64,000 bases of DNA from Escherichia coli (GCF_022846255.1 NZ_AP025682.1), one strand, 5' to 3'; counted from the first letter of the stretch, positions 3,103 to 56,799 are shown. Translations and numbers: made by a program. Notes: a model not told the origin generated them from the sequence alone.

Positions 3103-4152
3103 TTTGAAAACTGCCTGTACGGCAGTGAACAGCGCCCGCTTTTTTACCGCGTCAGCGCAGCGTTTCTAAGCTGCCTGTACGGCAGTGAACTCCCTGATTC
3201 AGTTGCGCTCCCCGACGAGCTGTTTCTAAGCTGCCTGTACGGCAGTGAACCGTTGGCGTTTCGCGGCAACAGGTTTTTCAATTTTCTAAGCTGCCTGTAC
3301 GGCAGTGAACGTAGTTTTGATTCCAGCGATAACTGCCTATTTATTTCTAAGCTGCCTGTACGGCAGTGAACGTAGTTTTGATTCCAGCGATAACTGCCTA
3401 TTTATTTCTAAGCTGCCTGTACGGCAGTGAACGATCAGGCCCGGCTTTCCCCACACGTTCGTATTTTCTAAGCTGCCTGTACGGCAGTGAACCGCCTGCC
3501 ATTCAACCTGCAAATAGTTTTCGATTTCTAAGCTGCCTGTACGGCAGTGAACGAACTGTGGCACGAGGTTGCAGGCGTAAGACTTTTCTAAGCTGCCTGT
3601 ACGGCAGTGAACGCCATCTTTGAATATAACGCCCCGATTGTGATTTTCTAAGCTGCCTGTACGGCAGTGAACCCCTACCGTTTTAATAAATGGGATTTGC
3701 ATTATTTCTAAGCTGCCTGTACGGCAGTGAACGCTGAGGTGTTTACAATGCGTGCCGTGCTGGTTTTCTAAGCTGCCTGTACGGCAGTGAACTCTGTTTT
3801 TCGTCAGCAGGATTAAACCAGGCATTTCTAAGCTGCCTGTACGGCAGTGAACTCTCATCAATTACGGGTTCGTTGGCTGGATCTTTTCTAAGCTGCCTGT
3901 ATGGCAGTGAACGTCTTCTGCGCATCCGTACCACTCACCAATGATTTCTAAGCTGCCTGTATGGCAGTGAACTTAATCGGTAACGTTGCTCTAATTCCCC
4001 CTCTTTTCTAAGCTGCCTGTATGGCAGTGAACCCAGCGAGAATTGAGGCTGTTTGCCGTGTGCTTTTCTAAGCTGCCTGTATGGCAGTGAACATAAACGC
4101 GCGCAGGTTGTTGAGGTGCTCGAGTTTCTAAGCTGCCTGTATGGCAGTGAAC
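3103..4152 (-). CRISPR. CRISPR array 1, type I-F repeat; 18 repeats / 17 spacers
   Basis: 28-bp unit TTTCTAAGCTGCCTGTACGGCAGTGAAC on the + strand (reverse complement of the I-F consensus GTTCACTGCCGTACAGGCAGCTTAGAAA) at 60-bp period; repeat starts 3103, 3163, 3223, 3283, 3344, 3405, 3465 ... 4125; spacers 32 bp except a duplicated 33-bp spacer; degenerate terminal repeat at 3103-3130 marks the leader-distal end. Confidence 0.97.
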
Positions 4153-4400
4153 TGGAATAATAGCAGACTATCCGATTGATTTACTGTTAAAACTTACAAA
4201 ATCGCAGATTCAAACCCTTTTTCCAGACTTCAAAACAGAAATAAACAAAATCAATGAGTTACATTTCGCCCTAAAAAAAGGGTCGATTTGGTATTTCTTC
4301 AATCTCATATTTTCTGCATAGCTTTTGATAAACAATTGACCAGAACACATACGGTCATAATCTCCGTCCCGCGAACAGCGTGTTCATTGCGTAACCAAAC
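4153..4400 (-). promoter_or_regulatory. putative CRISPR array 1 leader (AT-rich)
   Basis: AT-rich sequence abutting the conserved end of the array; the degenerate repeat is at the opposite end; promoter not mapped. Confidence 0.45.
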
Positions 4401-4495: not shown

Positions 4496-4583
4496 GGTGA
4501 GGTGTCCGAGTGGCTGAAGGAGCACGCCTGGAAAGTGTGTATACGGCAACGTATCCGGGGTTCGAATCCCCGCCTCACCGCCA
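4496..4583 (+). tRNA. serW: tRNA-Ser (anticodon GGA)
   Basis: 88-nt sequence GGTGAGGTGTCCGAGTGGCTGAAGGAGCACGCCTGGAAAGTGTGTATACGGCAACGTATCCGGGGTTCGAATCCCCGCCTCACCGCCA; long variable arm, CUGGAAA anticodon loop, encoded CCA. Confidence 0.93.
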
Positions 4584-4596
4584 TCTTTAAAGAAGA

Positions 4597-4624
4597 GCTC
4601 GTACGAAAGTACGGGCTTTTTTTT
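4597..4624 (+). terminator. rho-independent terminator downstream of tRNA-Ser
   Basis: hairpin GCTCGTAC-GAAA-GTACGGGC followed by a T8 tract. Confidence 0.55.
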
Positions 4625-4642
4625 CGCATTGATGCACCTTAA

Positions 4643-4677
4643 ATAAAAAACACGTACTTCCTCTTCGAAAGTACGTG
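4643..4677 (-). terminator. terminator candidate for the fimbrial operon (minus strand)
   Basis: perfect 8-bp inverted repeat CACGTACT/AGTACGTG; on the minus strand it is followed by TTTTTTTATTT. Confidence 0.45.
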
Positions 4678-4704
4678 AAAATCAGTGGCTGATTACCATA
4701 CCCA

Positions 4705-5718
4705 CTAGTCGTAGGATACGGCAAATATGGCTTTGCTTTGGACTTCTCCAGGCTGTAGTGCTTCCTCCTTCACGCGGACATATTTCGCGGTAATCGGGAA
4801 GGTGTACTGATTCTCAATGGCCGCCATTTTAGTTAGTTTGTTCATCAGAGTATCACCCAGCTTTAACGGTGTTGTTGCGTTACCATTATAAATCTGGAAC
4901 CCAACCCCCTTAGCACCATTAAGCGATGTGTTTTTCAGAATGGTTCCACTATCATCCCATTCACCGCGCGCAACTTTAAAAGTCACTGGATTAGTCGTGA
5001 CGTTATAAACACTGTCACAATTTAAAACCAGATCTATAGAACCTGATTTCGTGTTATTGGCAGATTGCATCTCACTTACCGTTGTTTCTGGCATTCTTAT
5101 TTCGTAAATCGGTTGCGAAAAACTACAGGTTGTGGGTTTGTGTTTGATGCTAAATTCTATATTCTGAGTGTAAGAAACATCACTATTTAGTCGCCCAGTA
5201 ACCCAACATAAAAGCCATGATATGATATTATTATTGCAAGAGTTATCTGTTAGTATGCTAATAGCGGGGCGCGGGATGGTTATCTTGTCGATATTGGTGG
5301 TTATAGTATGGTCTACTTTACTCGTTGGCCCAACATATTCTGCCTTAAGAGTGAACGGTTTGGTATTTATCACATCCTGAGTGTTATATTCTTTTGGAGA
5401 AGCACCCAAGGAGTCAGTTCCAGTAGAAACAGGAAAACTACTACTCTCAAGGTTAAATTTCATAAAAATTGATTTCCCCGAATCCGACTCTCTAAGTTCA
5501 ACGATATAATCTTTTAACGGTGTTGCATAATACATTTTATCGCTTGCTGCATTACATGTGAACGTATCGACTAAGTTTGTATGAATTACAGCCGTTACCG
5601 TATCTTGTGCCATATCCAGTTCTATCGTTTGGCTTGCTGTTGTATTAGGCCCCAAGGTACATTTAGCCTGCCCCAAAAAAGGCAAAGCCAGTAAAAACAA
5701 AAACCAATATTTCTTCAT
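4705..5718 (-). CDS. fimbrial tip adhesin-like protein (two-domain, FimH-like organisation)
   Basis: ORF 4705..5739; start trimmed to the ATG at 5718 preceded by AAAGGA; signal peptide MKKYWFLFLLALPFLGQA; C-terminal pilin-like end AIFAVSYD; last gene of a chaperone-usher operon. Confidence 0.7.
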   Translation of the reverse strand: MKKYWFLFLLALPFLGQAKCTLGPNTTASQTIELDMAQDTVTAVIHTNLVDTFTCNAASDKMYYATPLKDYIVELRESDSGKSIFMKFNLESSSFPVSTGTDSLGASPKEYNTQDVINTKPFTLKAEYVGPTSKVDHTITTNIDKITIPRPAISILTDNSCNNNIISWLLCWVTGRLNSDVSYTQNIEFSIKHKPTTCSFSQPIYEIRMPETTVSEMQSANNTKSGSIDLVLNCDSVYNVTTNPVTFKVARGEWDDSGTILKNTSLNGAKGVGFQIYNGNATTPLKLGDTLMNKLTKMAAIENQYTFPITAKYVRVKEEALQPGEVQSKAIFAVSYD

Positions 5719-5729
5719 AAACAAATCCT

Positions 5730-8222
5730 TTAACGACAAATATAAACTTTATTCTCATCAATAACGTTATCAAAGGTAATAGTGCAGAATTGTTCCTGCT
5801 GTTTATTAACCGAGACGCGAATCGACGCGGGAACATCATTGGTGCGAATAAATATCCGACTTCCCTGTCCTACTAAGCCCACATTATTGCCACTTTCATC
5901 TTCAACCTCATAACCAAACGGCAACGGAGAGCCATCAGGTCGTTGGGAGATGAAATACCAGGGCTTGCGTTTATCAGTCTCAAACTGCGTCATCACTACC
6001 GCACCACGATAAGGAACGGTGTTTTTACGGTTACCCAGTAGCGCCACATCGCTTTTACTGTCGGCAATATCCAACATCAACGTATTTTCACGATACGGCG
6101 TCAGGTTGTCATAAATAGCGTAGCCTCTGCTATCCGTGGTCAAGTAACGATATCCCTGCACCGCAGCCCCCTCCAGCCCAGGTGCTTTGACAATGGCAAA
6201 CGTATCGGAAAGTCTGGGAGCCAGTGCCACCCCGTCCGACCACGCGACGAAACCGCCTTGAATATTACCGCTAACCTGTTGATATCTTTTCGACTGGCTA
6301 TAGCTGCCACCAATAGTCGCCAATGGCGCACGCCAGGTCAGGTTTCCACCTGCTGTTGTTTCGCTGCCCTGGTGTTGATGGCTCAAGTTTGCCCCGTAGC
6401 TGAACTGATCGCGGCTCCCCGCTACACCGCTGAGGCTGGTATTATTCGACCGATAGCCGTCTTTATCAAAAGTGGTCGAGTTAGAAACAAATAAATCTCG
6501 TCGTTTTTCAGTGATTCCATCGCCCCACGAGAAGGGAATTGAGAAATATAAGTTAATGCGTCTATCTTCGCGGTTATCTTCGTCGTAGGTCTGGCTAACA
6601 GACAAGGTATAACTAAGGCGTTCCCAGGAGTTCGAATAGCTGAGTTGATAATCTTTCCCTGTCCCGCTGCGTTCCCAATAATCCCGCCATTGACCGCTGA
6701 CCGACAGATATCCCCAATTTTCCGGTAATGACTGGTTTATATTTACAGAAAAGCTGTTCTTACGACCAAAATCGTACTGATAATAGTCGGCGATATCATA
6801 AACTGAGTCATCTTCTCGATTATAACTTTTCCTGTTATTTGCCCTCACGTGATCGTTAAAAGTACGATAATCTCGAGAAGAATAACGCCAGGCCGCCAGC
6901 GAAAATTGCGTTCCACTTTGAGAGAGATATTTGTTCCACGCAATCTGATAACTTTGACCATTAAACACATCACCGTTATCTTGTTCACTGTGGGAATGGG
7001 TAAAATCAACAGATACCGCACCAATCGGTGTATTCCATCCCGTGCCGAGAACAAACGATGAGTAATTATCAGACAACTGCGTGCCAGCATAGAGAGTCAG
7101 CAAATTATTAAGGCCATACTGATAGCTTCCCTGAATAAAATCTGACTGATCGCTGGCTCCCTCAATACGGCTACGTCCGACAGCAAATTCATATTTCGAA
7201 ACGCCCGGTTGCAACATATTTGGTACCGATGAATAAGGTACACGATAACGCGACACCGAACCGTCAGCTTCTTTAACGGTAACTTCCAGATCGGCACCAC
7301 CACCTGCAAGTTGCAAATCATCAATGGCGAATGGACCTGGCGGAACTTCTTTCTGGTAAACCACAAAGCCATTTTGTTCGATAGTGACAAGTGCGTTACT
7401 TTGGGCAACACCACGCACCACAGGCGTAAAATTCTGTTTAGAGTTCGGCAACATCTGCATATCGCGCCAAAGGCGTACACCGCGAAAACGCACGGAGTCA
7501 AAAACATCAGAACCGGTATACATTTCACCAGCACGCAATGTGCCAAGAATATGTGGAATTCCGCGCTCCAGATATAACGTGTTACTCTTCCATTTACCGC
7601 TGTTATCGTCACTTTTCGTATAATTGGCATTTGAATGCAACTGCCAGCCCAGCAGATTCAAACCACTATTCAGATTTAAATAGCTACTTTTATTATCTCC
7701 TCCGTGCTTATAATTACTGTAATACTGACTGGCATAATAAGAAGTATATAATGCGTTAATCCCACGATCCCATGCCTCAGGTGGAACATATCCGCGTTCA
7801 TACTCAACAACATAGGCCTGGGGTACACTCAACTTCAGGTTAAAATGCCCAATATCATAGTCAACGCTACCTCCCTGTACTGCATCCCGAAGAGGTACGC
7901 ATTCTACGCCTTTATCAATATTAATTCCTTCAGTGAGGATACCTATTTGCTTTAACTGCTCCCAAGATAAACATGTCGCATCCGGATCATCTTTAATGTC
8001 GACATTATAGTGTCCGCGCCACTGATTATTCAGGTAAACATCCATATCATAGATACCTGGCATCGGCTTATCACTATCAATATGATAGTCAGAAATTTTT
8101 TCCCCATTTAATCCGCCAATCATAAAATGGGTGTCAAATGTTTCATCTTCCGCCCATGCAAGCGACGTTGCCAACACCGACAGGATAGCCAGCGTAATAG
8201 AATTAAGTTTAGACATAATCAA
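5730..8222 (-). CDS. fimbrial outer-membrane usher protein
   Basis: 830-aa ORF with signal peptide; size and position after the chaperone are typical of PapC/FimD-family ushers. Confidence 0.9.
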   Translation of the reverse strand: MIMSKLNSITLAILSVLATSLAWAEDETFDTHFMIGGLNGEKISDYHIDSDKPMPGIYDMDVYLNNQWRGHYNVDIKDDPDATCLSWEQLKQIGILTEGINIDKGVECVPLRDAVQGGSVDYDIGHFNLKLSVPQAYVVEYERGYVPPEAWDRGINALYTSYYASQYYSNYKHGGDNKSSYLNLNSGLNLLGWQLHSNANYTKSDDNSGKWKSNTLYLERGIPHILGTLRAGEMYTGSDVFDSVRFRGVRLWRDMQMLPNSKQNFTPVVRGVAQSNALVTIEQNGFVVYQKEVPPGPFAIDDLQLAGGGADLEVTVKEADGSVSRYRVPYSSVPNMLQPGVSKYEFAVGRSRIEGASDQSDFIQGSYQYGLNNLLTLYAGTQLSDNYSSFVLGTGWNTPIGAVSVDFTHSHSEQDNGDVFNGQSYQIAWNKYLSQSGTQFSLAAWRYSSRDYRTFNDHVRANNRKSYNREDDSVYDIADYYQYDFGRKNSFSVNINQSLPENWGYLSVSGQWRDYWERSGTGKDYQLSYSNSWERLSYTLSVSQTYDEDNREDRRINLYFSIPFSWGDGITEKRRDLFVSNSTTFDKDGYRSNNTSLSGVAGSRDQFSYGANLSHQHQGSETTAGGNLTWRAPLATIGGSYSQSKRYQQVSGNIQGGFVAWSDGVALAPRLSDTFAIVKAPGLEGAAVQGYRYLTTDSRGYAIYDNLTPYRENTLMLDIADSKSDVALLGNRKNTVPYRGAVVMTQFETDKRKPWYFISQRPDGSPLPFGYEVEDESGNNVGLVGQGSRIFIRTNDVPASIRVSVNKQQEQFCTITFDNVIDENKVYICR

Positions 8223-8230
8223 TCCCTGAT

Positions 8231-8911
8231 CTATTTGACGGTTTTTACTTTTTCACTCAAATAGTTCCCATGGTCATCAATCAGCGTAATTGTATATTGA
8301 TTGATGGCTAAGGCTGTGGTGATAGTCTTATCTGACCAGGGGGCTAATAACAACGTTTCGTGATTTATTTTTCCACTTCCCATCAACTCAGGAATAGTTA
8401 TCCAGTTTGCGGAGTTGTTTTTGATATTAATACCACCATTGGCATGCTTAATGCTCAGACGACGAAAACTTTCTTTATCTACGCCAGTAAGTCCCTCTGG
8501 GCGGTAGATAAATTTAATACGATTCTGCATGGCGAATTTTATGCCATTCTTATCTTCTAATTCGGGGCAATTAGGTGGGATGTCTAGCACATTAAGGAAG
8601 AATAGGCTTTCGCGATCTTTTGGTAGTGTATTCGCCAATTTTTTGATTTTGAGTTGTTGCCCTTCCCCCCCTTTTACGTGAGCGACCGGTGGCGTCAACA
8701 CAAACGGAACATGAATTTTTTCTGGGGGTAGACTGGTATCGCCATCATCAATCCATGACTGAACCAGGGCGCTACGATTACCTTCATTCATTAACTGAAC
8801 GGTAATCTCTTTTTTCTTTTCTGGATAAATAACACGAGTGCCGTAGATATAGACACCACTCCACGCAGGCGTGACTATGCCGGCCAGCAAGAAGGCTATT
8901 AATTTTTTCAT
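8231..8911 (-). CDS. fimbrial periplasmic chaperone (PapD/FimC family)
   Basis: 226-aa ORF with signal peptide MKKLIAFLLAGIVTPAWS; size and operon position. Confidence 0.88.
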   Translation of the reverse strand: MKKLIAFLLAGIVTPAWSGVYIYGTRVIYPEKKKEITVQLMNEGNRSALVQSWIDDGDTSLPPEKIHVPFVLTPPVAHVKGGEGQQLKIKKLANTLPKDRESLFFLNVLDIPPNCPELEDKNGIKFAMQNRIKFIYRPEGLTGVDKESFRRLSIKHANGGINIKNNSANWITIPELMGSGKINHETLLLAPWSDKTITTALAINQYTITLIDDHGNYLSEKVKTVK

Positions 8912-8964
8912 TAAACAATCCTTGTTTGAGAAATCGGCGACCGAAGCCGCCGATAAACACGATA

Positions 8965-9513
8965 TTAATCTGTCACGACAGTCATTGTCAGAGCAGAGTT
9001 AACCGGGCCAGCAGTCACCGCATCACCTGATTGCGCGTATTTCGCACTGAAATTTAGTGTATATTCATTAGAGCTGTTTTTTTCTAACTCAATACTTTTA
9101 TCACCGTCAATCTGTTGAGATTGCCCATCTGCACTCTCATAGTAGACAGCAAAACCAGCACCATTTGGGTTTGCCACAGTATTAATGGTGATATCGCTAC
9201 GATTTGCATCAAACTGACTTCTGGAAAACGTAATTCTGGGAGTCTCATCTCCTGTACATTTGACCGTCAGCGGTACAGTTGTTTTATTTGAATAACCATC
9301 ATAAATATAACCAGCGCTCTTACCATCAAATTGATCAGCACCAATATCGTTCATAGCAATAGTAGCCTGGCTATTTCCGATAAATTGACAAGTAGTTCCA
9401 ACCACATTACCGGTAATAACTAACTCACCCTGTTCACTCCCCTCCTCTGCAAAAGCCCCTGCACTCATAAAAAGAGAAGATAATACTGCAACTGCAATAA
9501 TTGAACGTTTCAT
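8965..9513 (-). CDS. fimbrial major subunit (type 1 pilin-like)
   Basis: 182-aa ORF with signal peptide ending AFA, paired Cys residues, first gene of the operon. Confidence 0.85.
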   Translation of the reverse strand: MKRSIIAVAVLSSLFMSAGAFAEEGSEQGELVITGNVVGTTCQFIGNSQATIAMNDIGADQFDGKSAGYIYDGYSNKTTVPLTVKCTGDETPRITFSRSQFDANRSDITINTVANPNGAGFAVYYESADGQSQQIDGDKSIELEKNSSNEYTLNFSAKYAQSGDAVTAGPVNSALTMTVVTD

Positions 9514-9840
9514 AGTCTATTCCTTAACTAATTTATTCCAGGTGATCAAGAGTCTTTTTCCTCTCGGAAATGAATTTCGCAAATTACATTTTCTATCGCA
9601 ATGTAAACAATTTGTTTTTGTGATTTAAATCAAATTATCAAAAGCATATAACAAACAAAAACATCTACAAAAAATATTTTCCTTGTTTACTATTCGGCAT
9701 TATTTGATGTCTTTGCAAGGTAAATTAATACGTATAATTAATTGTGGTTTTTTATTTTAAATAAACATCCGCATACTGATAAAAGTGTAGGGCATTGAAT
9801 TATTTATTCTATTTCCAGCCAGAAATAGGCTTTTCAATAG

Positions 9841-9870
9841 ACAAAAAGACCTGACAGCAAGGCCAGGTCT
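9841..9870 (-). terminator. terminator candidate downstream of cas6f (end of the cas operon)
   Basis: 7-bp stem AGACCTG/CAGGTCT; on the minus strand it is followed by TTTTTGT. Confidence 0.45.
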
Positions 9871-9892
9871 TTTATACATTACAACTTACTAA

Positions 9893-10447
9893 TCAAAACC
9901 AGGGAATAGTGGCGGTTGCGCTTAATCCGTAACTACTAAATTCCCCTTTAACCGGTTCAGTAAGCAAATCACCATGACGGATAAACAGCTTGAACTGCTG
10001 CTGACTCGACAAACTATTCATATTAAGAAAGGGTAAATCGGTCCGCTGTTCAGCCTGCGTCGCCAGTCGCTCAATCGCCTGTTCTTCAGTTAGCCAGCCT
10101 TTTTTCACTGAACGCCTTAACAGACGCTGAGGGTTACTTTTTACCTGTACACGACTTACGACTCGCCAGCCTTTAATTTCAGGTACTAGCGTGACAGGCG
10201 AACATTGGCAGTAATCAGTAAGCCCTTTACGCCACGTAGAGGCTTCAAGTTCTTGCAATGCGGGGGCACTGCCGTGCAAGCGTAAACGCGCTCCCGGCGT
10301 AACATTCACGTCCGGGAAACTCACGCCGATATCACCTTGCCCTCTTGCACCTAATGCCCGATGCAATTTGGCAAATAACGCCGCCATCAACATTTCGCTC
10401 GAAAATTCAGGATCTGGCAGAACGCGGATCTCAAGGTAGTGATCCAT
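9893..10447 (-). CDS. cas6f: Cas6f / Csy4 crRNA endoribonuclease
   Basis: ORF 9893..10489 trimmed to MDHYLEIRVLPDPEF..., the recalled Csy4 N-terminus; AGGAG RBS 7 nt upstream of the ATG at 10447. Confidence 0.92.
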   Translation of the reverse strand: MDHYLEIRVLPDPEFSSEMLMAALFAKLHRALGARGQGDIGVSFPDVNVTPGARLRLHGSAPALQELEASTWRKGLTDYCQCSPVTLVPEIKGWRVVSRVQVKSNPQRLLRRSVKKGWLTEEQAIERLATQAEQRTDLPFLNMNSLSSQQQFKLFIRHGDLLTEPVKGEFSSYGLSATATIPWF

Positions 10448-10457
10448 TGGCAGCTCC

Positions 10458-11459
10458 TTATTCCGATTTCTCACCAAAGACACCGCCACGGATCAGCACA
10501 GCCATCACGTAGCGCTGCTGATCAACGTCTGGTTTCATCCCTTTAGTCACCCAATTGTCCAGTAAGGTATAAAAGTCGAGTTTTTCTTTCGGTTGACGGC
10601 AGGCCACACCGCGACTGGTTACAGAACCGTAAGGTTCCACGGCTATAGCCCCCAATTCATCAACCTTTGGATGCCAGGTATCAATGGTACGTAAAGCATT
10701 GCCAATCTTCTGAGAGTGAATACCGGCAATGCCAGCCACCTGGTATAACACGCGACTTTTACTACTGTTGCTGTCGAGTACCAGCTCCTGCGACGGAAAA
10801 ACTTCTTGCCCGGCACCAAGACGAACCTGCGCTTCAACGGTAAGCATCACCCACTCTTTTGCGCTTAATCCTTGCTCTATAATGGCCGCCAGCTGCGTGA
10901 CCGCTGCCTGTCCCTGGTCAAATTGACGTAAAGAGAAGTCATGGCTGTTAAAAGTCCAGGAAGTGTCGTTAGCAGTAACTTTCACCTGGATCTGCTCAGC
11001 ACCAATGCGGTTGCGCCACAGAAAACGACCATTTGCCAGATTCAGCGCATAGCGAAGCGCCAGCTCTTTAAAGCCATGTTCGCTGATGTAACCTTCAATG
11101 ACCCCGGAAAGCGCCTCCTGGTAAGCCATATCATTACATACTGACGGTGTGGATAAATTACCCAGCACACGCAGCGTAAACACCACCTTTAACGTATCCG
11201 CATCTACCGGAAGCGAAGCCACATCCACCCGTTGCAGGTTAGCTTTTTGGATTTCAGCATCCAGTTTTGTGGAGTCACTGGTAATCGTATTTTTCAAGCG
11301 ATTAGAGATAGTTCCGCGAACCGCTTTCTCCTGAATCTCAATGGGTTGCCATACATTTCCTTGCCAGTTACCTGCGTACATTACCGCGTCAGATGTTGCC
11401 AGTTTGCGCTCAAATGCCAGTACCGATGCCGTTTTTATTACTACAGGAGCCTTTGCCAT
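10458..11459 (-). CDS. cas7f: Cas7f / Csy3 (Csy complex backbone)
   Basis: 333-aa ORF; size and operon position between csy2 and csy4. Confidence 0.9.
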
Positions 11460-11469
11460 AATTATGTCC

Positions 11470-12393
11470 TTATTCTAAATCGTCATATTCATTAAAAGTA
11501 AAATCATCACCAGCTGGCATTGCCGAGCAATAGTAGCCAGTGTCCGTTGTGCGGTAACGCCACATCAGCGGTTGCAAGTCAGTTATGCGATGTAATCCGC
11601 GCCATTCGCCGATGCCATATACCGCTTCGGCAAAAGCAAATGGCGTCACGGTGTCGCGCGCATTTTCAACTTCACCGGGTGCGTAAACAGGAGAAATGCG
11701 TTGGTAGCCACACATTAACGGTACCAGGAAACCAGGCATTGGCTTCGGCTGATATGTCCATTTTGCGCTGTTGTCTTCTGCCGGAGATTCGGCCTGATAT
11801 TTAACGGCAGCAAAATCAAGCCAGGCATCCAGCAATGAGATGTCGGGATGTTGTTGGTGATGTTCAGCCAGCCATTCACTGCGATCGTAAAGCGCATAGC
11901 CAGGCATTAAACGCCAGATGATTTTACGCAGTTGCTTTTCATCTTCAGGCGCATGAAAAAGCTGTGGTTCGCGCATGTCAACAATGCTGCCGCCCGCCAG
12001 TTTGTGGCTCTGGCAGAGCATTTTCAGATGGTCACACAGAGCTTTTCTGCCATATTCACCATTGGTGATTTCCCCTTCACATTCAATGAGCAAAGATACC
12101 GTCAGATGCATACGGCCCTCTTCATTGAACGAAGCGGTTTTACCTTCTCTGGTTAGTGGGTTACGGGTGAGAGCAAACTGAAAATACCGCCCAGAGCTAT
12201 ATGCCTGAATATGTTGTTCATGGCTAACTACCGCGCAACCGTCAAAACTTACGCCAAAATCATCCGCCACTTTGCGAGAAAGCGCATGAACATAGCCGAG
12301 AAAATGGGTCATCGCCGGGAATCCCCAGGTCAACCCGGAGACGGCGTTAGCGTTTTCGATACGTATATGGGGTAACAAGAGCAGATAACTCAT
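11470..12393 (-). CDS. cas5f: Cas5f / Csy2
   Basis: 307-aa ORF; 4-bp overlap with csy1; operon position. Confidence 0.88.
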
Positions 12394-13697
12394 TTCAGCG
12401 CCTCCTGCAAAACAGCTTCCATTTCACGCATCCGTTGAGCGAACAGAGACTGGCTGCGCCATTCTCTTTGCTCGACAGCGCCCACGTCGAAACTGGATTT
12501 TTTCAGGCGATAGTTGAGCCAGCGCGCAAAATCATCGGCCACCGCCCCCTGCCAGTCGTTTTTCTCCCGCTCCAGTTTGAAAACCTCATCGGACAGGCTT
12601 CGCCACGGATCCAGCCAAAGCTGCTGATGGCGAGGTAAATCTTGCGATTGCGCTGACCATCCCTGCCATTTTTCTTGCTGAAAAGCGGATGCCTGCATGA
12701 ACAGCAGATCGATCAACTCATCAATATATTTCGCCCGCGCAGTTCGGATATGAACATTATTTATGTCAACCTTCAACAGGTAAGTCATCCGGGCGATAAT
12801 GCCCGAAGCCGCCCTATTGAAATCGCCGCGTAAGGCAAAAATACTGAGCATGTTTTGTGGTGCGCGATCCAGCGTCGCCCAGGTAGGCGGCATTGACGGC
12901 AACAGCCAGACGCGCCCCCCACGCACACTATTGAGCAATGAAATATTTTGCGGTTTTGTGCCTCCGAAATGCATTTCAGCAAGATTCGGGAAACGAATAT
13001 CTGGCTGTGAGTGCCATTTACCTGCTTTGTGCGCTTCGCGAATGGCTTTCGATTCCTCACTAAAGCGCACGGCGGTTAGCTTTTCATACATCGCCTGCGC
13101 CAGTGAACTGGAAAACAGTGGGCATAAGAGGTGATAACCATCCGCAACAGGGAAATAGATTTGTTTTGCCAGTTTATGGCTGGCAGGCCGTCCAGTTGTC
13201 CATGCCTGGCTAAACCCAGCTACCCACTGCTCCAGTTGCGCTTTATCCTCTGCAAACGTACTTAATGCCTGATAATCACCACGCTTCAGGCTGGCAAGCA
13301 GTGAATCTCCGTTCACATCAGTTTGTAGCAACTTTGCGACGTCAAGTGCAGCGGCGTTACCAATCGCGTCAGTAGCGACATTCGCCAACGATGCCGTGTT
13401 TAAATAGCTTTCGTTAGCGGAGGTTTCCAGATAAAAGCTACTGGCTTTAGAATCACCATGACTGAATTTAGCGCCATGAGTGACTAATTTGATTTGCCCG
13501 GCACGCTTTGCCGCATCCGTTAACCAGTGACGAGGCAGGTAGCGTGCCTCGAGTTCCTGCCGCTCCTGAGCGATGACGCTGGCATCCTCGCCCTGTTCCA
13601 GTCGCTTTGTTGCTTCTTTTTCAAAGGCCTCGACTTTGGGTTGCCTTCGCGAAGCGATATAGTCAGTGATAAATTGTATTAGCGCCGTTTTTTCCAT
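12390..13697 (-). CDS. cas8f: Cas8f / Csy1 (large subunit)
   Basis: 435-aa ORF; AGGAG RBS upstream; operon position. Confidence 0.9.
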   Translation of the reverse strand: MEKTALIQFITDYIASRRQPKVEAFEKEATKRLEQGEDASVIAQERQELEARYLPRHWLTDAAKRAGQIKLVTHGAKFSHGDSKASSFYLETSANESYLNTASLANVATDAIGNAAALDVAKLLQTDVNGDSLLASLKRGDYQALSTFAEDKAQLEQWVAGFSQAWTTGRPASHKLAKQIYFPVADGYHLLCPLFSSSLAQAMYEKLTAVRFSEESKAIREAHKAGKWHSQPDIRFPNLAEMHFGGTKPQNISLLNSVRGGRVWLLPSMPPTWATLDRAPQNMLSIFALRGDFNRAASGIIARMTYLLKVDINNVHIRTARAKYIDELIDLLFMQASAFQQEKWQGWSAQSQDLPRHQQLWLDPWRSLSDEVFKLEREKNDWQGAVADDFARWLNYRLKKSSFDVGAVEQREWRSQSLFAQRMREMEAVLQEALK

Positions 13698-13940
13698 CTC
13701 GGCTCCTTTCGTTAATCCATCAAATTGAAGTTGCTCCCTGACTTCACTGAAAAATCTCCGTAGCCCAACCAGGCTTCAGTACAACGACGCATACAGCAAA
13801 AGGGACAACACCCGTGGTGATAATCATGGATAGCTCACCTAGAGGTATCTACGTTTTAATCTAGTAAAATCCATGCAATAACCAATAGTGATATTACCAT
13901 GCATGAAATATTTGCCACACAATGATTTAAAAACTAACAT

Positions 13941-14016
13941 TCACGCACTGCCGTTGGCAGCTTAGAAATAGAGGTATCTCCGGATACGGACTTGTAAACT
14001 GCCGTACAGGCAGCCC
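13941..14016 (+). repeat. two degenerate CRISPR repeat-like sequences in the cas3-csy1 intergenic gap, inverted relative to both arrays
   Basis: 13946-13968 CACTGCCGT-T-GGCAGCTTAGAAA (loop shortened from 5 to 3 nt); 13998-14014 ACTGCCGTACAGGCAGC (17-nt exact repeat core); consensus orientation is on the + strand, opposite to the arrays. Confidence 0.6.
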
Positions 14017-14024
14017 GCGCCCCT

Positions 14025-17000
14025 TCACGGGGCGCGGTACACACCTAACCAGGGGTGATAACGCCAGTCATCGACCACATCTTCTTCACTGACGGGTACT
14101 CTCACCTCAGCAAACTTTTCCCCAACGCTTGCTATCTCACAACCTTGCTTATCAGCTAAATTCAACAAAACGTGTTGGTAATCCATCACGCCCCAGCAAG
14201 CGACACCGCTGGCGCATCTCACCTCTTCTCGCCTGAAATTCCCTTGCGCTTTACGCTCGTTGTCGCCCGTACGGGAATAGAAACGCGCTTCGCTTTCTTC
14301 ATCATCCATATGCAGAAAAAATACCGCCTCCGGCAAAGGGGAATAACGAAATGGCGTCTGGCGCTGTATCCAGCCGTTCCAGCTTAGCGGTGCACGCCAC
14401 CATTGCGCCGCCACCACATGTTTGCTTTTACTGCTCATCAATTCGGCGGATAAACGACTATGTTCTAGCTCCGCCAGTTTGTTGGCATTATTGGCAGACA
14501 GGATCCGCGGCAAGGCGTTAATCGTCCGGTAGTCCGCGATCGGAATCAGTTCGCAAATATCGTGGCTATTCAGCAAGTGTTCTTTTGTTTCGAAACCAGG
14601 CTTACAAAATGCGGGGGCTTTTTTCTGCAATGATTTGATATTGCTACGCAAAATAACCAGATTCTCACTGGTCGGCACATTTCTACGGTGGCGCTGAATA
14701 CGTCCGGCAAATTGAATTATCGAACGCATGGAGCTTGGTTCGATAATTCCCCAATCCGCATCCCAGTCACGCCCCACTTCTATAACCGATGTCCCCAACA
14801 CCACAAACAGATGGTGCGATTCCGGACGGTTATGTAAGGCATCTGCGATATCTTCGTTGTTCCAGAAATCGAGTTCGTTATGACGGGTAAAAGCGCGGTC
14901 CAGTCGCTTCTCAATATCTGAACGCACCGCCAGCGGGTGTCGGGAGTGGTAAACACAATAATGAATACAAACATTTTCTGGTGAAGGAATGGCAATCAGG
15001 GCTTTGGTCACTGCAACCAGTGGATTGATATTCGCGAAGCGCACCAGGCCCAGCGAAACGGTTTTACCGCTTTCGTGTAGCTGGCGATGCGCCTGATGCA
15101 ACTTCAGCATTTGCGTATGCACCGTCTGGGCCACACTTTCGGTAACATCCTGGATTGCAACTGATGCAGATGAAATCGAAGCAACACGCCCGAAATGCAG
15201 CCGCTCTTTTTCAGCCAGCATTACCGCCCGCCTGGCAACAAATTTTGTATGCGCATCGCGAAAGGCCGCTCCATCGCTAATTTGCGTGGCATCAGCATCG
15301 TTTTCGTCAAACCAGGCACAGCAAATATTGACGGGCCTGCCGTTGGTACCACAAGACGCCTGCCACATTTTACGCCCGGCAAGATAAGCCGCGAACAGCG
15401 CCTGAATCAGGCCTGGCGGAAGCGTCGCCGAAGAGAGTAACACCCGCGTTCCCAGCATCCCGGCCCAGTTCATCAAACGACATACCGCATGAAGATCAGC
15501 AATATCAAAGTCGTCGGGTTCGTCGAGCACTAAATCGCTGGTTAACAGACGCAACATCGCCGGAAGCTGTTTCCCGCCACGCACACCCTCGGTCGCGGAA
15601 ATAAGATGATCAATTGTCGCGACCAGAATCGGCGCGCTCACTAACGCCTTAAGTTTGCTGTCATCCTTCAACCATTTTTCCAGCGCCCCGGTATGCAGGC
15701 TGCCTTCGTACTTAACGAACTGTTGCTCCTCTGCCGGCGACTCTTGCGAGGCACTTCCACAATCATTGTCTATTTTTTCCTGCTGCCAGAGCTGTTTAAC
15801 TGCCGCCGAACCAATTAATACCGCCAGCTCATCCTCACCGAGTCCAAGTCGACTACGCAGAGCATCGCCGGTTTGCAAAGTCAGCGTACGCAATCCCAGC
15901 GCGACGGTAAAACGGCACCCTTCCCGCTCATCGGCAAGCGCATACATAATGCGGGCGTTCGCAAAGGTTTTACCGCACCCCGTCGAGGCCATATTAACGC
16001 CGAAAAATCCCTCCTCCCGGCTTCGTTCACGTAACGCTCGCGCCACATCCGAGGCTTTATCCTGCCAGCGATATTTCGCATCTGTAGCTCGCTGGCTAAA
16101 ACCTTTATGTCGGGCAATTGCCGGAAGAGAAGCCCGTGTGCGCATCAGCTGCCGCCCAAGCAAAAACGCATGATGTGCGACGCCGACCAGGTGCTCGTCC
16201 ACCCGTTGTTTGAGTGCGCCACTTTGCCTATCGCTATTTGCCCAGACGATATAATCCGGCTCCTGCCATTTTTGCTGCGCATCGCTTGAGGAATAGTAAT
16301 GATCGGCAAGCATCAGGCAAAAACGCGCCATATGTGAGGGGAACAACTGTTCCATCAGCCCGTATGTCTTTAAACCGAGCGCGTTACTTGCCCGGCGGGA
16401 AATCTGATGTGCTTTTTCTCGCCAGCTAGCACTCTGAAGCGGTGTTCCAGCCGGAAATTGCCAGACGTGCGCAAAATCCTGTTGTAACCAGTCATCTCTG
16501 CGGTGGTTAACGGCATTCCAGTCAGCATTAAGTTGCCTTTCCAGCCAACTTTCACACCCTTTGCAAGATTGTTCCGGTTGTGGCGAAAGATTCTCCGGAA
16601 TTCGATGATGGGAAAGGATCAGCCAACCTACCGTTTTGGCTAGCGGTTGCAGCGAAGTAAATGGGCTATCTGAAAATTGAGGCGTGTCTTTTAGCAGGCG
16701 TTCCAGAATCGCAGATTCATCATCTGCCGTAAGTTCGCCAAGCTTCGCCAGCCACACATCGTCGGGCCGATCACCGACAAACGCCTGAAAGAGCCGCAGT
16801 GAGATCCATTCATGTCGGTATGGTTGATAACTGCGGGCATTCTTTTGGGTCAGGCTTTGCTGAAAGCTGCGTCCGGATTTTCCAAAATCATGAAATAACC
16901 CGGCGATGGCTGCCAGCAGCGCAATGCTTTCCGCACATTGCCAGCGGTTTTCTTCCTTGTTCACCAGGCTGGTTTGCGTTGTGCGATTTGTGGGAACGCG

Positions 17001-17258
17001 CCCCTGAGCATTAAAACGACGAATATTACCCACAATCCACATCAACTCAATTTGTCCATTCTTCTTTAGCCAGTGACATGCCACTGCGGTATTTCGCCTG
17101 GCAGTTTTGCGCAGTAAACGGCGGAGTGTATTAACGCCTTCCAGAGTAATCACTGTTTGCCATGCGGCATCACCTGTACGTTCAGCAAACTGATCAATAA
17201 TACGGCAGCTTTCCACGCGGGCGTTTTTTGTACAGCGCGAGATAATCAGAACATTCAT
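14025..17258 (-). CDS. cas3: Cas2-Cas3 fusion (Cas3f: N-terminal Cas2, HD nuclease, helicase)
   Basis: 1077-aa ORF; N-terminus MNVLIISRC...FAERTGDAAWQT resembles recalled I-F Cas2/3; HD motif LFHDFGK; 4-bp overlap with cas1. Confidence 0.95.
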   Translation of the reverse strand: MNVLIISRCTKNARVESCRIIDQFAERTGDAAWQTVITLEGVNTLRRLLRKTARRNTAVACHWLKKNGQIELMWIVGNIRRFNAQGRVPTNRTTQTSLVNKEENRWQCAESIALLAAIAGLFHDFGKSGRSFQQSLTQKNARSYQPYRHEWISLRLFQAFVGDRPDDVWLAKLGELTADDESAILERLLKDTPQFSDSPFTSLQPLAKTVGWLILSHHRIPENLSPQPEQSCKGCESWLERQLNADWNAVNHRRDDWLQQDFAHVWQFPAGTPLQSASWREKAHQISRRASNALGLKTYGLMEQLFPSHMARFCLMLADHYYSSSDAQQKWQEPDYIVWANSDRQSGALKQRVDEHLVGVAHHAFLLGRQLMRTRASLPAIARHKGFSQRATDAKYRWQDKASDVARALRERSREEGFFGVNMASTGCGKTFANARIMYALADEREGCRFTVALGLRTLTLQTGDALRSRLGLGEDELAVLIGSAAVKQLWQQEKIDNDCGSASQESPAEEQQFVKYEGSLHTGALEKWLKDDSKLKALVSAPILVATIDHLISATEGVRGGKQLPAMLRLLTSDLVLDEPDDFDIADLHAVCRLMNWAGMLGTRVLLSSATLPPGLIQALFAAYLAGRKMWQASCGTNGRPVNICCAWFDENDADATQISDGAAFRDAHTKFVARRAVMLAEKERLHFGRVASISSASVAIQDVTESVAQTVHTQMLKLHQAHRQLHESGKTVSLGLVRFANINPLVAVTKALIAIPSPENVCIHYCVYHSRHPLAVRSDIEKRLDRAFTRHNELDFWNNEDIADALHNRPESHHLFVVLGTSVIEVGRDWDADWGIIEPSSMRSIIQFAGRIQRHRRNVPTSENLVILRSNIKSLQKKAPAFCKPGFETKEHLLNSHDICELIPIADYRTINALPRILSANNANKLAELEHSRLSAELMSSKSKHVVAAQWWRAPLSWNGWIQRQTPFRYSPLPEAVFFLHMDDEESEARFYSRTGDNERKAQGNFRREEVRCASGVACWGVMDYQHVLLNLADKQGCEIASVGEKFAEVRVPVSEEDVVDDWRYHPWLGVYRAP

Positions 17259-18244
17259 TGATCAGCCTTAGCCAGTGCCTGGGCAGTTTCCTGCAAAGAG
17301 GTGATCATGACATCCAGCGCATCCGTTTGTTGAAAGATATTGATGCAGCGTAGACGAAACTCCTGGGCATCTTCACCTGCCATCGCGGCGATAAATGCTT
17401 GCGGCATCACAAGGGCATCTTTAATCAGATCGGCAAGGTCAAAAACCAGCCCGCCGCGACGTGTTTTACCGTGCATTACTGCTAAACCGTGCGGGATCCC
17501 GGTTACCCACGCCGCCACTGCTGCCAGTCCATAAGCCAGATAATTCCCTTGATCGAGGAAGCGGTTGGCCATATCAATACCACCGCCCCGTTTTGCGCGA
17601 GTGAAATCGCCATACCCCACTGTTTGACTGACCATTTTGTATAACGCTTTAGTCAATTTGGCCTCTACGAGCATAAGCTGCGTATGGTTTTCTGCCGCGT
17701 CTATTTCTTCACGAGTACGATTCAGGAGGGTATGCAGCGCATTAACATCAGGTTGAAATGCGTGTTCACGCTGCATTTTCGAGCTGGACCAGTGCTTATC
17801 GATATGTGTCAGGCGGATTAACTGAAAACGTTTCGCGGCGGCAAGTCGTTTATCTTCAGCAAACCAAAAAGAAACCCACTGCTGGAGATACTCTGTAGGG
17901 CGATATTCACTTTGTGGGCTGAGCCAGGAGACATCAACATCCACTTCATTTGCCGAATACAGCGGCGTGCCATCCGTACCACAAAAGCCCACCATCACCC
18001 CGGCATGAGCAAATTCACGCATCGCCGCCTGAGTAACGGAAGTTCCCATTCCCAACATCAATGCCGTGGTATTCGCAATGGGGATATTCCAGTAGTACGA
18101 CTCTTTACCTTCGCTGGTGACATACTCCACCCGCCCACCATTCACCTGTACCCGGCATTTTTCCAGATAATAAATATTGGCGCGTTTGGAGTGGAGAATG
18201 GTTTTGAGATCGGAAGGCGTGAGGTAATTCGAAGACATAAACAC
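17255..18244 (-). CDS. cas1: Cas1 integrase (type I-F)
   Basis: 329-aa ORF; SDLKTILHSKRANIYYLEKCRVQVNGGRVEYV resembles recalled I-F Cas1. Confidence 0.95.
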   Translation of the reverse strand: MFMSSNYLTPSDLKTILHSKRANIYYLEKCRVQVNGGRVEYVTSEGKESYYWNIPIANTTALMLGMGTSVTQAAMREFAHAGVMVGFCGTDGTPLYSANEVDVDVSWLSPQSEYRPTEYLQQWVSFWFAEDKRLAAAKRFQLIRLTHIDKHWSSSKMQREHAFQPDVNALHTLLNRTREEIDAAENHTQLMLVEAKLTKALYKMVSQTVGYGDFTRAKRGGGIDMANRFLDQGNYLAYGLAAVAAWVTGIPHGLAVMHGKTRRGGLVFDLADLIKDALVMPQAFIAAMAGEDAQEFRLRCINIFQQTDALDVMITSLQETAQALAKADQ

Positions 18245-18409
18245 ATCCTGTGATTATTTTATATTTGAAGGTATTGGGCTTAGTACAGCATTGATTTATG
18301 TGCTGAAAATTGATTTCTGTCGCAATTATTACGATTGTTATTGTATGCTGAAGCTAATGGTTTGAAGTTGAGAGCGTCATGATATGACCAAACGTCTACC
18401 ATTATCGTA

Positions 18410-19277
18410 TTGTGAAACTACCTGTACGGCAGTGAACCGCGTAGAGCTGCTGCGCAAACTCGACACTCATTTCTAAGCTGCCTGTACGGCAGTGAACCCT
18501 CGTTCATCAAGGTGCTCAAAGCTTGACATTTTCTAAGCTGCCTGTACGGCAGTGAACGCCAAGAACGCTGTTACCGCTTCCCTGTGCGCTTTCTAAGCTG
18601 TCTGTACGGCAGTGAACCCAGATTGCCGAAAACATCGCCTTTGATGAACTTTCTAAGCTGCCTGTACGGCAGTGAACGGGCGCGGTGTCGTCCAGGATTT
18701 GGAGGCAACTTTCTAAGCTGCCTGTACGGCAGTGAACAACAGGTCGTCCAGCGCATCCCACGGATCCGGTTTCTAAGCTGCCTGTACGGCAGTGAACATC
18801 GCGCACACGCAGTCTTACATTTGCCACCATTTCTAAGCTGCCTGTACGGCAGTGAACGAGTGATTATTATGGCCCAATCGGACGATGACTTTCTAAGCTG
18901 CCTGTACGGCAGTGAACCTCCACCCGTGGTAAGCAGAAAGGGCCGTAACTTTCTAAGCTGCCTGTACGGCAGTGAACTGATCTGTTGCGATACTGACAGT
19001 ATCGTTAGCTTTCTAAGCTGCCTGTACGGCAGTGAACTGTTTTTTTGACGTGTAAACCGGGCGGTTTTTTTTCTAAGCTGCCTGTACGGCAGTGAACATC
19101 TCCGTATTTACTGTCCTCCCTGCTATCCATTTCTAAGCTGCCTGTACGGCAGTGAACTGCCAGTTTCGAAAACGTGCAGCAAATGCAGTTTTCTAAGCTG
19201 CCTGTACGGCAGTGAACTACCTTAATTTGAAATGAACCTTTGCCGCATATTTCTAAGCTGCCTGTACGGCAGTGAAC
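18410..19277 (-). CRISPR. CRISPR array 2, type I-F repeat; 15 repeats / 14 spacers
   Basis: same 28-bp repeat at a strict 60-bp period (starts 18410, 18470 ... 19250); all spacers 32 bp; degenerate terminal repeat at 18410-18437 (cas1-proximal); one variant repeat at 18590-18617. Confidence 0.97.
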
Positions 19278-19425
19278 TCAAATACTACACGTTTAGCTCG
19301 TTGTTGATAAAGAAAAATCATCTCATTTTCCTGCTGCCACCCTTTTTTATTCTTACCTTCCAGCACCATTAATTATCAACAACTTACCTTCACCTCCAAA
19401 AATAGGGTTTTCACCGTTCCCCCCT
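19278..19425 (-). promoter_or_regulatory. putative CRISPR array 2 leader
   Basis: AT-rich sequence next to the conserved end of the array, between the array and the clpA terminator; promoter not mapped. Confidence 0.4.
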
Positions 19426-19464
19426 ACAAACAAAAAGTCCGTAACCTCTTTCGAGATTACGGAC
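19426..19464 (-). terminator. rho-independent terminator of clpA
   Basis: 8-bp stem GTCCGTAA/TTACGGAC; on the minus strand it is followed by a T-rich tract. Confidence 0.6.
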
Positions 19465-56701: not shown

Positions 56702-56780
56702 GCCACTGCTTTTCTTTGATGTCCCCATTTTGTGGAGCCCATCAACCCCGCCATTTCGGTTCAAGGTTGATGGGTTTTTT
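56702..56780 (+). ncRNA. rybB: Hfq-dependent sRNA RybB
   Basis: GCCACTGCTTTTCTTTGATGTCCCCATTTTGTGGAGCCCATCAACCCCGCCATTTCGGTTCAAGGTTGATGGGTTTTTT matches the recalled RybB sequence, including seed and terminator hairpin; lies between ybjL and rcdA as in K-12. Confidence 0.85.
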
Positions 56781-56799
56781 GTTGCCTGAAATTTATCTA

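Follow-up and report, generated by a model that had tools for sequence, protein, structure and literature searches.

A predicted self-targeting mini-array in the cas2-3/cas8f gap of an Escherichia coli CRISPR-Cas locus of type I-F

The CRISPR-Cas system of type I-F in Escherichia coli LF82 has been studied by Almendros et al. (PMC3506596): a 330-bp gap separates cas2/3 from csy1, no transcript extends across the gap, expression is constitutive, and the system is active in interference. In Pseudomonas aeruginosa YL84, a mini-array of a I-F1 system represses the Cascade promoter in a Csy-dependent manner, without cleavage (Shmakov et al., 10.1101/2023.03.03.530964). Elements of this type are named CreR when they regulate cas genes, and CreA when they repress a toxin (PMC12737573); bacterial CreA/CreR spacers are typically 23-27 nt long (10.1101/2024.10.29.618823). 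No description of such a mini-array in Escherichia was found in the literature searched, which did not cover the supplementary tables of Shmakov et al. The present analysis concerns 64,000 nucleotides of E. coli DNA (GCF_022846255.1, NZ_AP025682.1), indicated below as the window, which include an apparently complete type I-F1 locus, with a mini-array inside the gap between cas2-3 and cas8f.

The preferred reading is that of a working I-F system, whose gap mini-array guides the Csy complex to repress its own effector genes; a probability of about 0.8 is assigned to it. The mini-array itself, so far unannotated, belongs by its anatomy to the CreR/CreA class of regulatory elements, which is already known.

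The gap contains one match to the repeat core of the locus, in inverted orientation relative to the arrays. The match belongs to a short element, formed by two degenerate repeats (psiR1 and psiR2) and a single spacer (psiS), and preceded by a promoter-like sequence, directed toward it (Table 1). Both hexamers of this promoter-like sequence, and their spacing, are kept in LF82 and in E. coli TCM_B_2, the sequence between the hexamers being variable. Neither psiR1 nor psiR2 reaches the gathering score of the Rfam family CRISPR-DR4. The parts kept are exactly those required for Cas6f cleavage and Csy assembly, the element being degenerate elsewhere; an RNA of 8 + 25 + 20 = 53 nt is predicted. Immediately next to psiR2 there is a GC-rich hairpin (14014-14035, CCCGCGCCCC...GGGGCGCGG), whose loop contains the stop codon of cas2-3; the other Escherichia alleles examined lack this hairpin. 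All the 238 E. coli genomes matching the gap sequence retain the gap at a coverage of at least 97%, and RefSeq annotates no feature in it. A phage-borne mimic ("Cracr") was also sought, by using the CTTAGAAATAGANNTATCT pattern: the 12 matches found in IMG/VR are regarded as due to chance, since none of them is preceded by a repeat hairpin.

A candidate target of the mini-array lies within the same gap, 129 bp from the mini-array spacer and 140 nt upstream of cas8f. Spacer positions 1-11 match the target, as do positions 13-14, and the site made up of CC, the expected protospacer adjacent motif (PAM), and of the 11-nt seed occurs only once in the window. Read in the sense of the cas genes, the footprint corresponds to CTAGATTAAAACGTAGATACCTCTA, after which comes GG. 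A -10-like box, TAGATT (minus strand, 13863-13858), falls within the footprint; at the aligned place LF82 features TAATAT, within differing surroundings. A second -10-like box, TGgTAATAT, is found upstream (13899-13891). The GG of the PAM is, in turn, part of the Shine-Dalgarno (SD) sequence AGGTGA of a short open reading frame (ORF). Because the footprint lies on a -10-like box and the PAM within an SD sequence, binding of Csy should occlude the promoter or stop early elongation.

Spacer and target were compared at positions 5-6 among six Escherichia alleles. The bases found there, in spacer and target respectively, are GG and GG in the window and in E. whittamii, TG and TA in the E. coli TCM_B_2 type, GA and GG in SCPM-O-B-8794, GG and GT in E1V33, GG and GA in LF82. 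Position 5 is altered in both spacer and target in one lineage. Three independent changes affect position 6, which is the sole freely varying position of the seed; no change is observed at any other seed position, nor in the PAM bases. Position 6 is the base that Cas7 flips out of the duplex.

Analogous elements were looked for in 80 species-level I-F loci, retrieved with Cas8f, by a test in which each guide is compared with its own locus, leaving position 6 of the seed free. In 34 cases a mini-array handle, likewise inverted, lies upstream of cas8f; for 21 of the 34 a perfect CC + own-seed target is found, against 0.02 expected from shuffled seeds. These sites are on the same strand in 21 cases out of 21, and all are located between the mini-array and cas8f, except in locus L069, where the site falls inside cas8f. 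In I-F loci devoid of the mini-array cassette the gap between cas3 and cas8f is only 9-55 bp long. Guide and target co-vary within Escherichia, and own-seed targets recur across taxa. In many loci from outside Escherichia (L019, L022, L052, L055, L060, L062 and others) the target PAM is followed, in the cas sense, by TTGAC or TTGACA; since the PAM adjoins TTGAC, the Csy complex would, in these loci, abut the -35 box of the cas8f promoter.

The mechanism proposed may be described as follows. From what is known of the family, transcription of both arrays would start from the leaders and use the minus strand, and Cas6f would cut each repeat past its hairpin, producing 60-nt CRISPR RNAs (crRNAs). 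Together with Cas8f, Cas5f and Cas7f, these would form the Csy complex, expected to find CC-flanked protospacers and to recruit Cas2-3; Cas1, with Cas2-3, would insert new spacers at the leader end. The divergently transcribed mini-array would generate a crRNA-like RNA of about 53 nt, composed of an 8-nt handle, a 25-nt spacer and a 20-nt hairpin, likely to load into the same Csy complex as the array crRNAs. The complex would then pair, by spacer positions 1-11 and 13-14, with the CC-flanked site in the csy promoter/leader. Such a pairing is presumably too short to license cutting by Cas2-3, so that the bound complex would rather block transcription of cas8f-cas5f-cas7f-cas6f, along with the leader containing the short ORF and a hairpin. 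The outcome would be a negative feedback, where effector synthesis increases when Csy is in short supply, is titrated away by other crRNAs, or is inhibited. It may be inferred that Cas6f processes the mini-array RNA, that this RNA loads onto Csy, and that repression of the csy genes, with its negative feedback, results.

A few observations weigh against this picture. The loop of psiR1 is 3 nt long instead of 5 nt, and processing of psiR1 by Cas6f is only predicted. The promoter scan of the gap returned no site on the minus strand, the csy promoter being a consensus reading of the -10-like hexamers. As LF82 is reported to express csy1 "constitutively", any repression would be partial. Finally, repression in this strain, like the activity of the allele, is predicted from sequence.

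The region between target and cas8f deserves separate consideration. The short ORF lies downstream of the target, is divergent from the mini-array, and is separated from cas8f by 46 nt. It is intact in five of the Escherichia alleles; in LF82, a 1-nt insertion, together with a different start, results in a 37-aa product with another C-terminus. An SD sequence and a start codon are present in all six alleles, although provided by different sequences in E1V33 and LF82. From the middle of the ORF to cas8f, nucleotides are almost invariant among Escherichia alleles; this near-invariance, along with the frame change of LF82, indicates selection on RNA or DNA, rather than on a peptide. A conserved peptide had been considered, as a third-position bias (8 of 13 changes) hinted at coding, and was dropped because the 3' half of the ORF is, in LF82, in another frame. 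No match to the short ORF is present in Pfam, NCBIfam or PADLOC, and the ORF contains neither tandem proline nor rare arginine codons. Part of it is included in a long predicted hairpin of the csy leader, for which RNAalifold proposes a 16-bp helix, pairing 13809-13794 with 13749-13730. The changes observed in the helix are one-sided and pair-preserving, none being compensatory, and the near-invariant sequence makes controls uninformative; when the leader is folded as a whole, it does not surpass shuffled sequences.

In other genera, ORFs of about 49 aa, forming one family, were found upstream of cas8f (L019, L021, L023, L025, L032, L022; Leclercia, Cedecea, Enterobacter sp., Stenoxybacter). 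In its members a hydrophobic, Cys-containing N-terminus precedes a V/I-K-P motif, and the C-terminus ends in ...SIFTFNFK. In five Enterobacterales loci, also endowed with mini-array and target, about 20 nt separate the end of the ORF from cas8f; for a shorter match from Stenoxybacter (hidden Markov model, HMM, E value 1.8e-6) the distance is about 70 nt. The family does not match any named family in Pfam, NCBIfam or PADLOC. The 27-codon ORF of the window was considered as a possible member, and rejected, as the family HMM fails to detect the Escherichia ORF.

An alternative reading concerns this leader: the gap would be an addiction module of the CreTA type, and not purely an autoregulator. 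The Csy-repressed leader RNA, with its strong SD sequence, start codon, short ORF and long hairpin, would be toxic when de-repressed, and cells losing the Csy proteins, or having Csy inhibited, would stop growing. The layout is that of creTA from Acinetobacter WCHA45 (PMC10097628), where creA and a CC target are accompanied by a divergent SD sequence and mini-ORF, downstream of the target, and by a hairpin. Maintenance of SD sequence and start codon in all six alleles by partly different sequences, and a leader better conserved than the cas8f coding sequence, point in the same direction, as do the all-or-none occurrence of the E. coli cas block (complete in 238 of the 240 genomes carrying it) and the near absence of insertion sequences (IS) within cas-F genes (PMC3903273). 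Yet the short ORF, lacking tandem rare or proline codons and any database match, bears no likeness to known CreT or CreP; its frame and length vary with the allele, leaving no conserved peptide; the leader hairpin is devoid of compensatory changes; and the leader is co-transcribed with cas8f, so that its conservation may merely serve csy expression. On balance, an addiction module is regarded as rather unlikely. Equally doubtful is the wider proposal that Escherichia I-F loci carry an undescribed CreTA-like guard, its leader RNA being a new type of CRISPR-repressed toxin. If true, such a guard would kill or arrest cells losing Csy function or hit by anti-CRISPRs, and would explain why E. coli cas-F genes are all-or-none and rarely disrupted by IS elements.

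The six cas genes are, as reported in the preliminary description of the locus, uninterrupted minus-strand ORFs of type I-F families. The search of protein profiles suggested there places all of them accordingly: each protein matches, at full length, an NCBIfam type I-F equivalog HMM, with scores far over the curated cut-offs (547 bits for Cas1f; 1219 bits for Cas2-3, the match spanning positions 1-1110 of 1110 in the profile), full-length coverage being obtained also for the Csy set, and PADLOC models agree (Cas6f, Cas7f, Cas5f, Cas8f, Cas2-3f, Cas1f). By alignment to solved I-F proteins, His29 is retained in Cas6f and the H...D..D metal-site motif in Cas1; Cas2-3, aligned from residue 1 to solved Cas2/3 proteins, retains the HD motif, Walker A (STGcGKT), DEPD and motif VI. 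The alignment also indicates ATG 10447 as the true start of cas6f (184 aa), in place of GTG 10489. The 4-bp overlaps described for cas1/cas3 and csy1/csy2 were found at 17255-17258 and 12390-12393, respectively. The tight gene junctions described along with them are therefore real at these two places, but not between cas2-3 and cas8f, where 327 bp accommodate the inverted mini-array, its target and the conserved leader, absent from the preliminary description; the cas genes, hence, do not form a single tight operon.

The 28-bp I-F repeat, previously attributed to both arrays, was found as expected: the repeat core gives 34 matches in the window, including the one in the gap, against 0 expected, and 31 repeats exceed the CRISPR-DR4 gathering score (50.1 bits, gathering 35). 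As these matches fall on the minus strand, the direction of the crRNAs is that of the cas genes. The repeat is predicted to form a hairpin, with a 5-bp stem and a 5-nt loop. Two arrays in the same orientation had been placed within 9893-19277: the orientation is correct, and array B is indeed there, but array A lies about 5.7 kb outside. The leader-distal repeat is degenerate in each array (at 3103 in array A, at 18410 in array B). Spacers are 32 nt long, with the exception of one of 33 nt, which is found in array A twice, in identical form and in tandem (3311-3343 and 3372-3404). The five leader-proximal repeats of array A (3885-4152) share a G-to-A variant in the loop (GTTCACTGCCATACAGGCAG...; CTGCCATACAGGCAG), consistent with a mutation of the first repeat, then copied through five later acquisitions.

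Protospacers were found for four spacers. Spacer 6 of array A matches at 32 of 32 positions a SprT-like gene carried by 91 conjugative plasmids, of which a single one was inspected and is IncN; 32 of 32 positions are also matched by spacer 4 of array B, in a Mu-like prophage gene, and by spacer 13 of array A, in a lambdoid prophage gene, while 30 of 32 positions match between phage CharmingMan and the spacer most recently acquired by array B. All four protospacers are preceded by a 5'-CC PAM, an outcome with a chance probability, by our own arithmetic, of about 1.5e-5. When 5426 complete E. coli genomes are considered, only one of the 30 distinct spacers is also found in their arrays. From the motifs, the strain-unique spacers, the propagated repeat variant and the activity of the LF82 allele, it may be inferred that crRNA processing, interference and adaptation are operative, and the locus may be described as a complete type I-F1 system, apparently working; the full functionality put forward in the preliminary description is a prediction from sequence.

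It might be argued that intactness of the sequence is accompanied, in this strain, by silence or inactivity of the system, as for I-E in K-12. The nature of the evidence for activity of this allele, commented on above, and the fimbrial insertion described below, which shifted array A 5.7 kb away from cas6f, are in line with this view. Intact catalytic motifs are not, nor is the absence of 29 of the 30 spacers from the arrays of other complete genomes, the propagation of the repeat variant across the five newest units of array A, the right PAM beside protospacers of present-day plasmids and phages, or the constitutive activity of the LF82 allele (PMC3506596); silence is, all considered, improbable. 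As for the gap repeats being what is left of an old inverted array, decayed and devoid of function, with a coincidental seed match, the degenerate state of both repeats, below the Rfam gathering score, would fit, but this is very hard to sustain when degeneracy spares exactly the functional parts, promoter hexamers are conserved across a variable spacer, the element is kept in every Escherichia allele examined and in the 238 E. coli genomes matching the gap, position 5 shows a compensatory change with free change only at position 6, and 21 of 34 analogous elements have their own target where 0.02 would be expected.

Table 1. Position of the features described, counted from the first letter of the window
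Feature	Position	Strand	Description
Inverted mini-array	13940-14021	+	two degenerate repeats, one spacer
Promoter-like sequence toward mini-array	13912-13940	+	TTGCCA-17-TAACAT; promoter scan
psiR1	13940-13968	+	CTGCC/GGCAG stem, 3-nt loop, intact 8-nt handle CTTAGAAA
psiS spacer	13969-13993	+	25 nt, TAGAGGTATCTCCGGATACGGACTT
psiR2	13994-14021	+	first 20 nt (GTAAACTGCCGTACAGGCAG) keep hairpin; last 8 nt unrelated to repeat
Mini-array target	13838-13864	+	PAM CC 13838-13839; 11-nt seed match 13840-13850; 25-nt footprint to 13864
Short ORF	13744-13827	-	MIITTGVVPFAVCVVVLKPGWATEIFQ; 27 codons; ATG 13827; SD AGGTGA 13835-13840
Predicted long hairpin in csy leader	13730-13809	-	GUUGUCCCUUUUGCUG pairs with CAGUGAAGUCAGGGAGCAAC; nearly invariant in six Escherichia alleles
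cas6f/csy4	9893-10447	-	184 aa; TIGR02563; His29 present
cas7f/csy3	10458-11459	-	TIGR02566
cas5f/csy2	11470-12393	-	TIGR02565
cas8f/csy1	12390-13697	-	TIGR02564
cas2-cas3 fusion	14025-17258	-	1077 aa; TIGR02562; HD, Walker A, DEPD, motif VI present
cas1f	17255-18244	-	TIGR03637
CRISPR array A (infA side)	3103-4152	-	18 repeats of 28 nt, 17 spacers
AT-rich leader of array A	4153-4330 (approximate extent)	-	
CRISPR array B (clpA side)	18410-19277	-	15 repeats, 14 spacers
AT-rich leader of array B	19278-19455 (approximate extent)	-	
Chaperone-usher fimbrial operon	4626-9815	-	adhesin-like 344 aa, usher 830 aa, chaperone 226 aa, YehD-like major subunit 182 aa

The locus occupies the clpA-infA interval, 16.5 kb long in the window and 684 bp in K-12. 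In K-12 MG1655 the interval contains serW and, between clpA and serW, two I-F repeats with one spacer (4254-4341 of the retrieved stretch); no I-F repeats are found between serW and infA, nor cas genes anywhere in the interval. The statement, in the preliminary description, that K-12 has short array remnants and no I-F cas genes was thus accurate. The accessory status proposed for the locus is equally borne out, the cas block being found in 240 of the 5426 complete E. coli genomes, but not in K-12; and the subtype was rightly considered known rather than novel, the same kind of locus having already been studied in LF82. The typical order in carriers is infA, array, serW, 112 bp, cas6f...cas1, array, clpA.

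The window departs from this order by a four-gene fimbrial operon of about 5.2 kb, inserted between the serW terminator and cas6f, which typical I-F-positive E. coli lack. The operon is not part of the CRISPR-Cas system, though splitting the locus; as the operon and serW intervene, array A is not adjacent to the cas genes. The same fimbrial-cas6f adjacency is found in E. whittamii and in Escherichia sp. E1V33; att-type repeats, sought around the insertion, were not found. Copies of the operon with the 3' part of tRNA-Ser (4527-9830), 94% identical, are present in only 31 complete E. coli genomes. They are bounded by IS1, and reside either on phage-plasmids of the P1-like kind, about 98 kb in size, or in a defence island of the chromosome (pE189-1, ETEC1718); their apparent origin is capture from a chromosomal site linked to serW, such as that of the window.

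The flanks of the locus are those of E. coli, with identities of 99.3% for clpA-clpS and of 98.2% for a 24-kb flank; an origin of the window from a non-coli Escherichia, considered at first, was rejected on these grounds. The cas block, on the other hand, is 94.2% identical to the nearest among the complete E. coli genomes, and the closest relatives of its Cas8f are from Escherichia sp. E1V33 (96%) and E. whittamii (92%). The block (9392-18400) is far more divergent than the flanking core genes (19490-48000), which are at 98-99%. The divergent cas genes and the fimbrial adjacency in E. whittamii and E1V33 suggest that the whole segment may be an old or imported allele. Elsewhere in the window, the gene for the small RNA RybB is found at 56705-56783 (+; Rfam RF00110, 105 bits).

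The I-F system itself adds nothing new, being a divergent allele of the one studied in LF82. What is added is a putative unannotated gene for a crRNA-like regulator in every I-F-positive E. coli, among them the experimental model LF82 as well as two pathogens, UTI89 and NU14. Should the mini-array act as its Pseudomonas counterpart does, it would set the level of Csy by feedback, and would respond to anti-CRISPRs; if so, it would be relevant both to exploiting and to combating the native E. coli I-F system, as in CRISPR antimicrobials, phage therapy and plasmid curing. The E. coli locus is also a convenient genetic system for both CreR and CreTA logic.

When compared with the I-F systems described in E. 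coli (CRISPR-III, CRISPR4.1/4.2, LF82; PMC3506596, PMC3903273), the locus shares the clpA-infA site, the gene order and the 28-nt repeat; as in LF82, there are two leader-bearing arrays, a gap of about 330 bp between cas2/3 and csy1, and a CC (GG) PAM. The gap is about 82% identical to that of LF82, the cas block 94% identical to its nearest E. coli counterpart, and the spacer sets are almost entirely different; unlike these systems, and like E. whittamii and E1V33, the window features the fimbrial operon between serW and cas6f.

The intergenic position is also that of CreTA from WCHA45 (PMC10097628), CreTA1/2 from P. aeruginosa (10.64898/2026.06.02.729485) and CrePA from A. baylyi ADP1 (10.1101/2024.01.05.574328), all of which likewise combine a creA-like guide and a CC target with elements placed downstream of this target, namely an SD sequence, a short ORF and a hairpin. 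CreTA1 of P. aeruginosa has its promoter in common with the csy operon, as is probably the case in the window. The ORFs of these systems, however, have 5 or 11 codons, or encode a 103-aa KilAC protein, whereas that of the window has 27 codons, and 37 in LF82; it features neither tandem proline or rare codons nor sequence similarity to them, and any toxin role is putative.

The reading preferred here, that of a mini-array guiding Csy onto the csy promoter/leader, has its counterpart in CreR of the YL84 type (10.1101/2023.03.03.530964; PMC12737573). The spacer and target sequences of the window are unrelated to those of YL84, and the function of the window element is a predicted one. Moreover, in many other taxa the PAM abuts a TTGAC -35 box, whereas in the window the footprint extends over a -10-like box and onto the beginning of the leader, with the PAM inside the SD sequence of the short ORF. 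Both elements, nevertheless, lie between cas3 and cas8f and are oriented opposite to cas3; both consist of two degenerate repeats and a shortened spacer, facing a CC-flanked seed site upstream of cas8f, with tolerance for mismatches at position 6.

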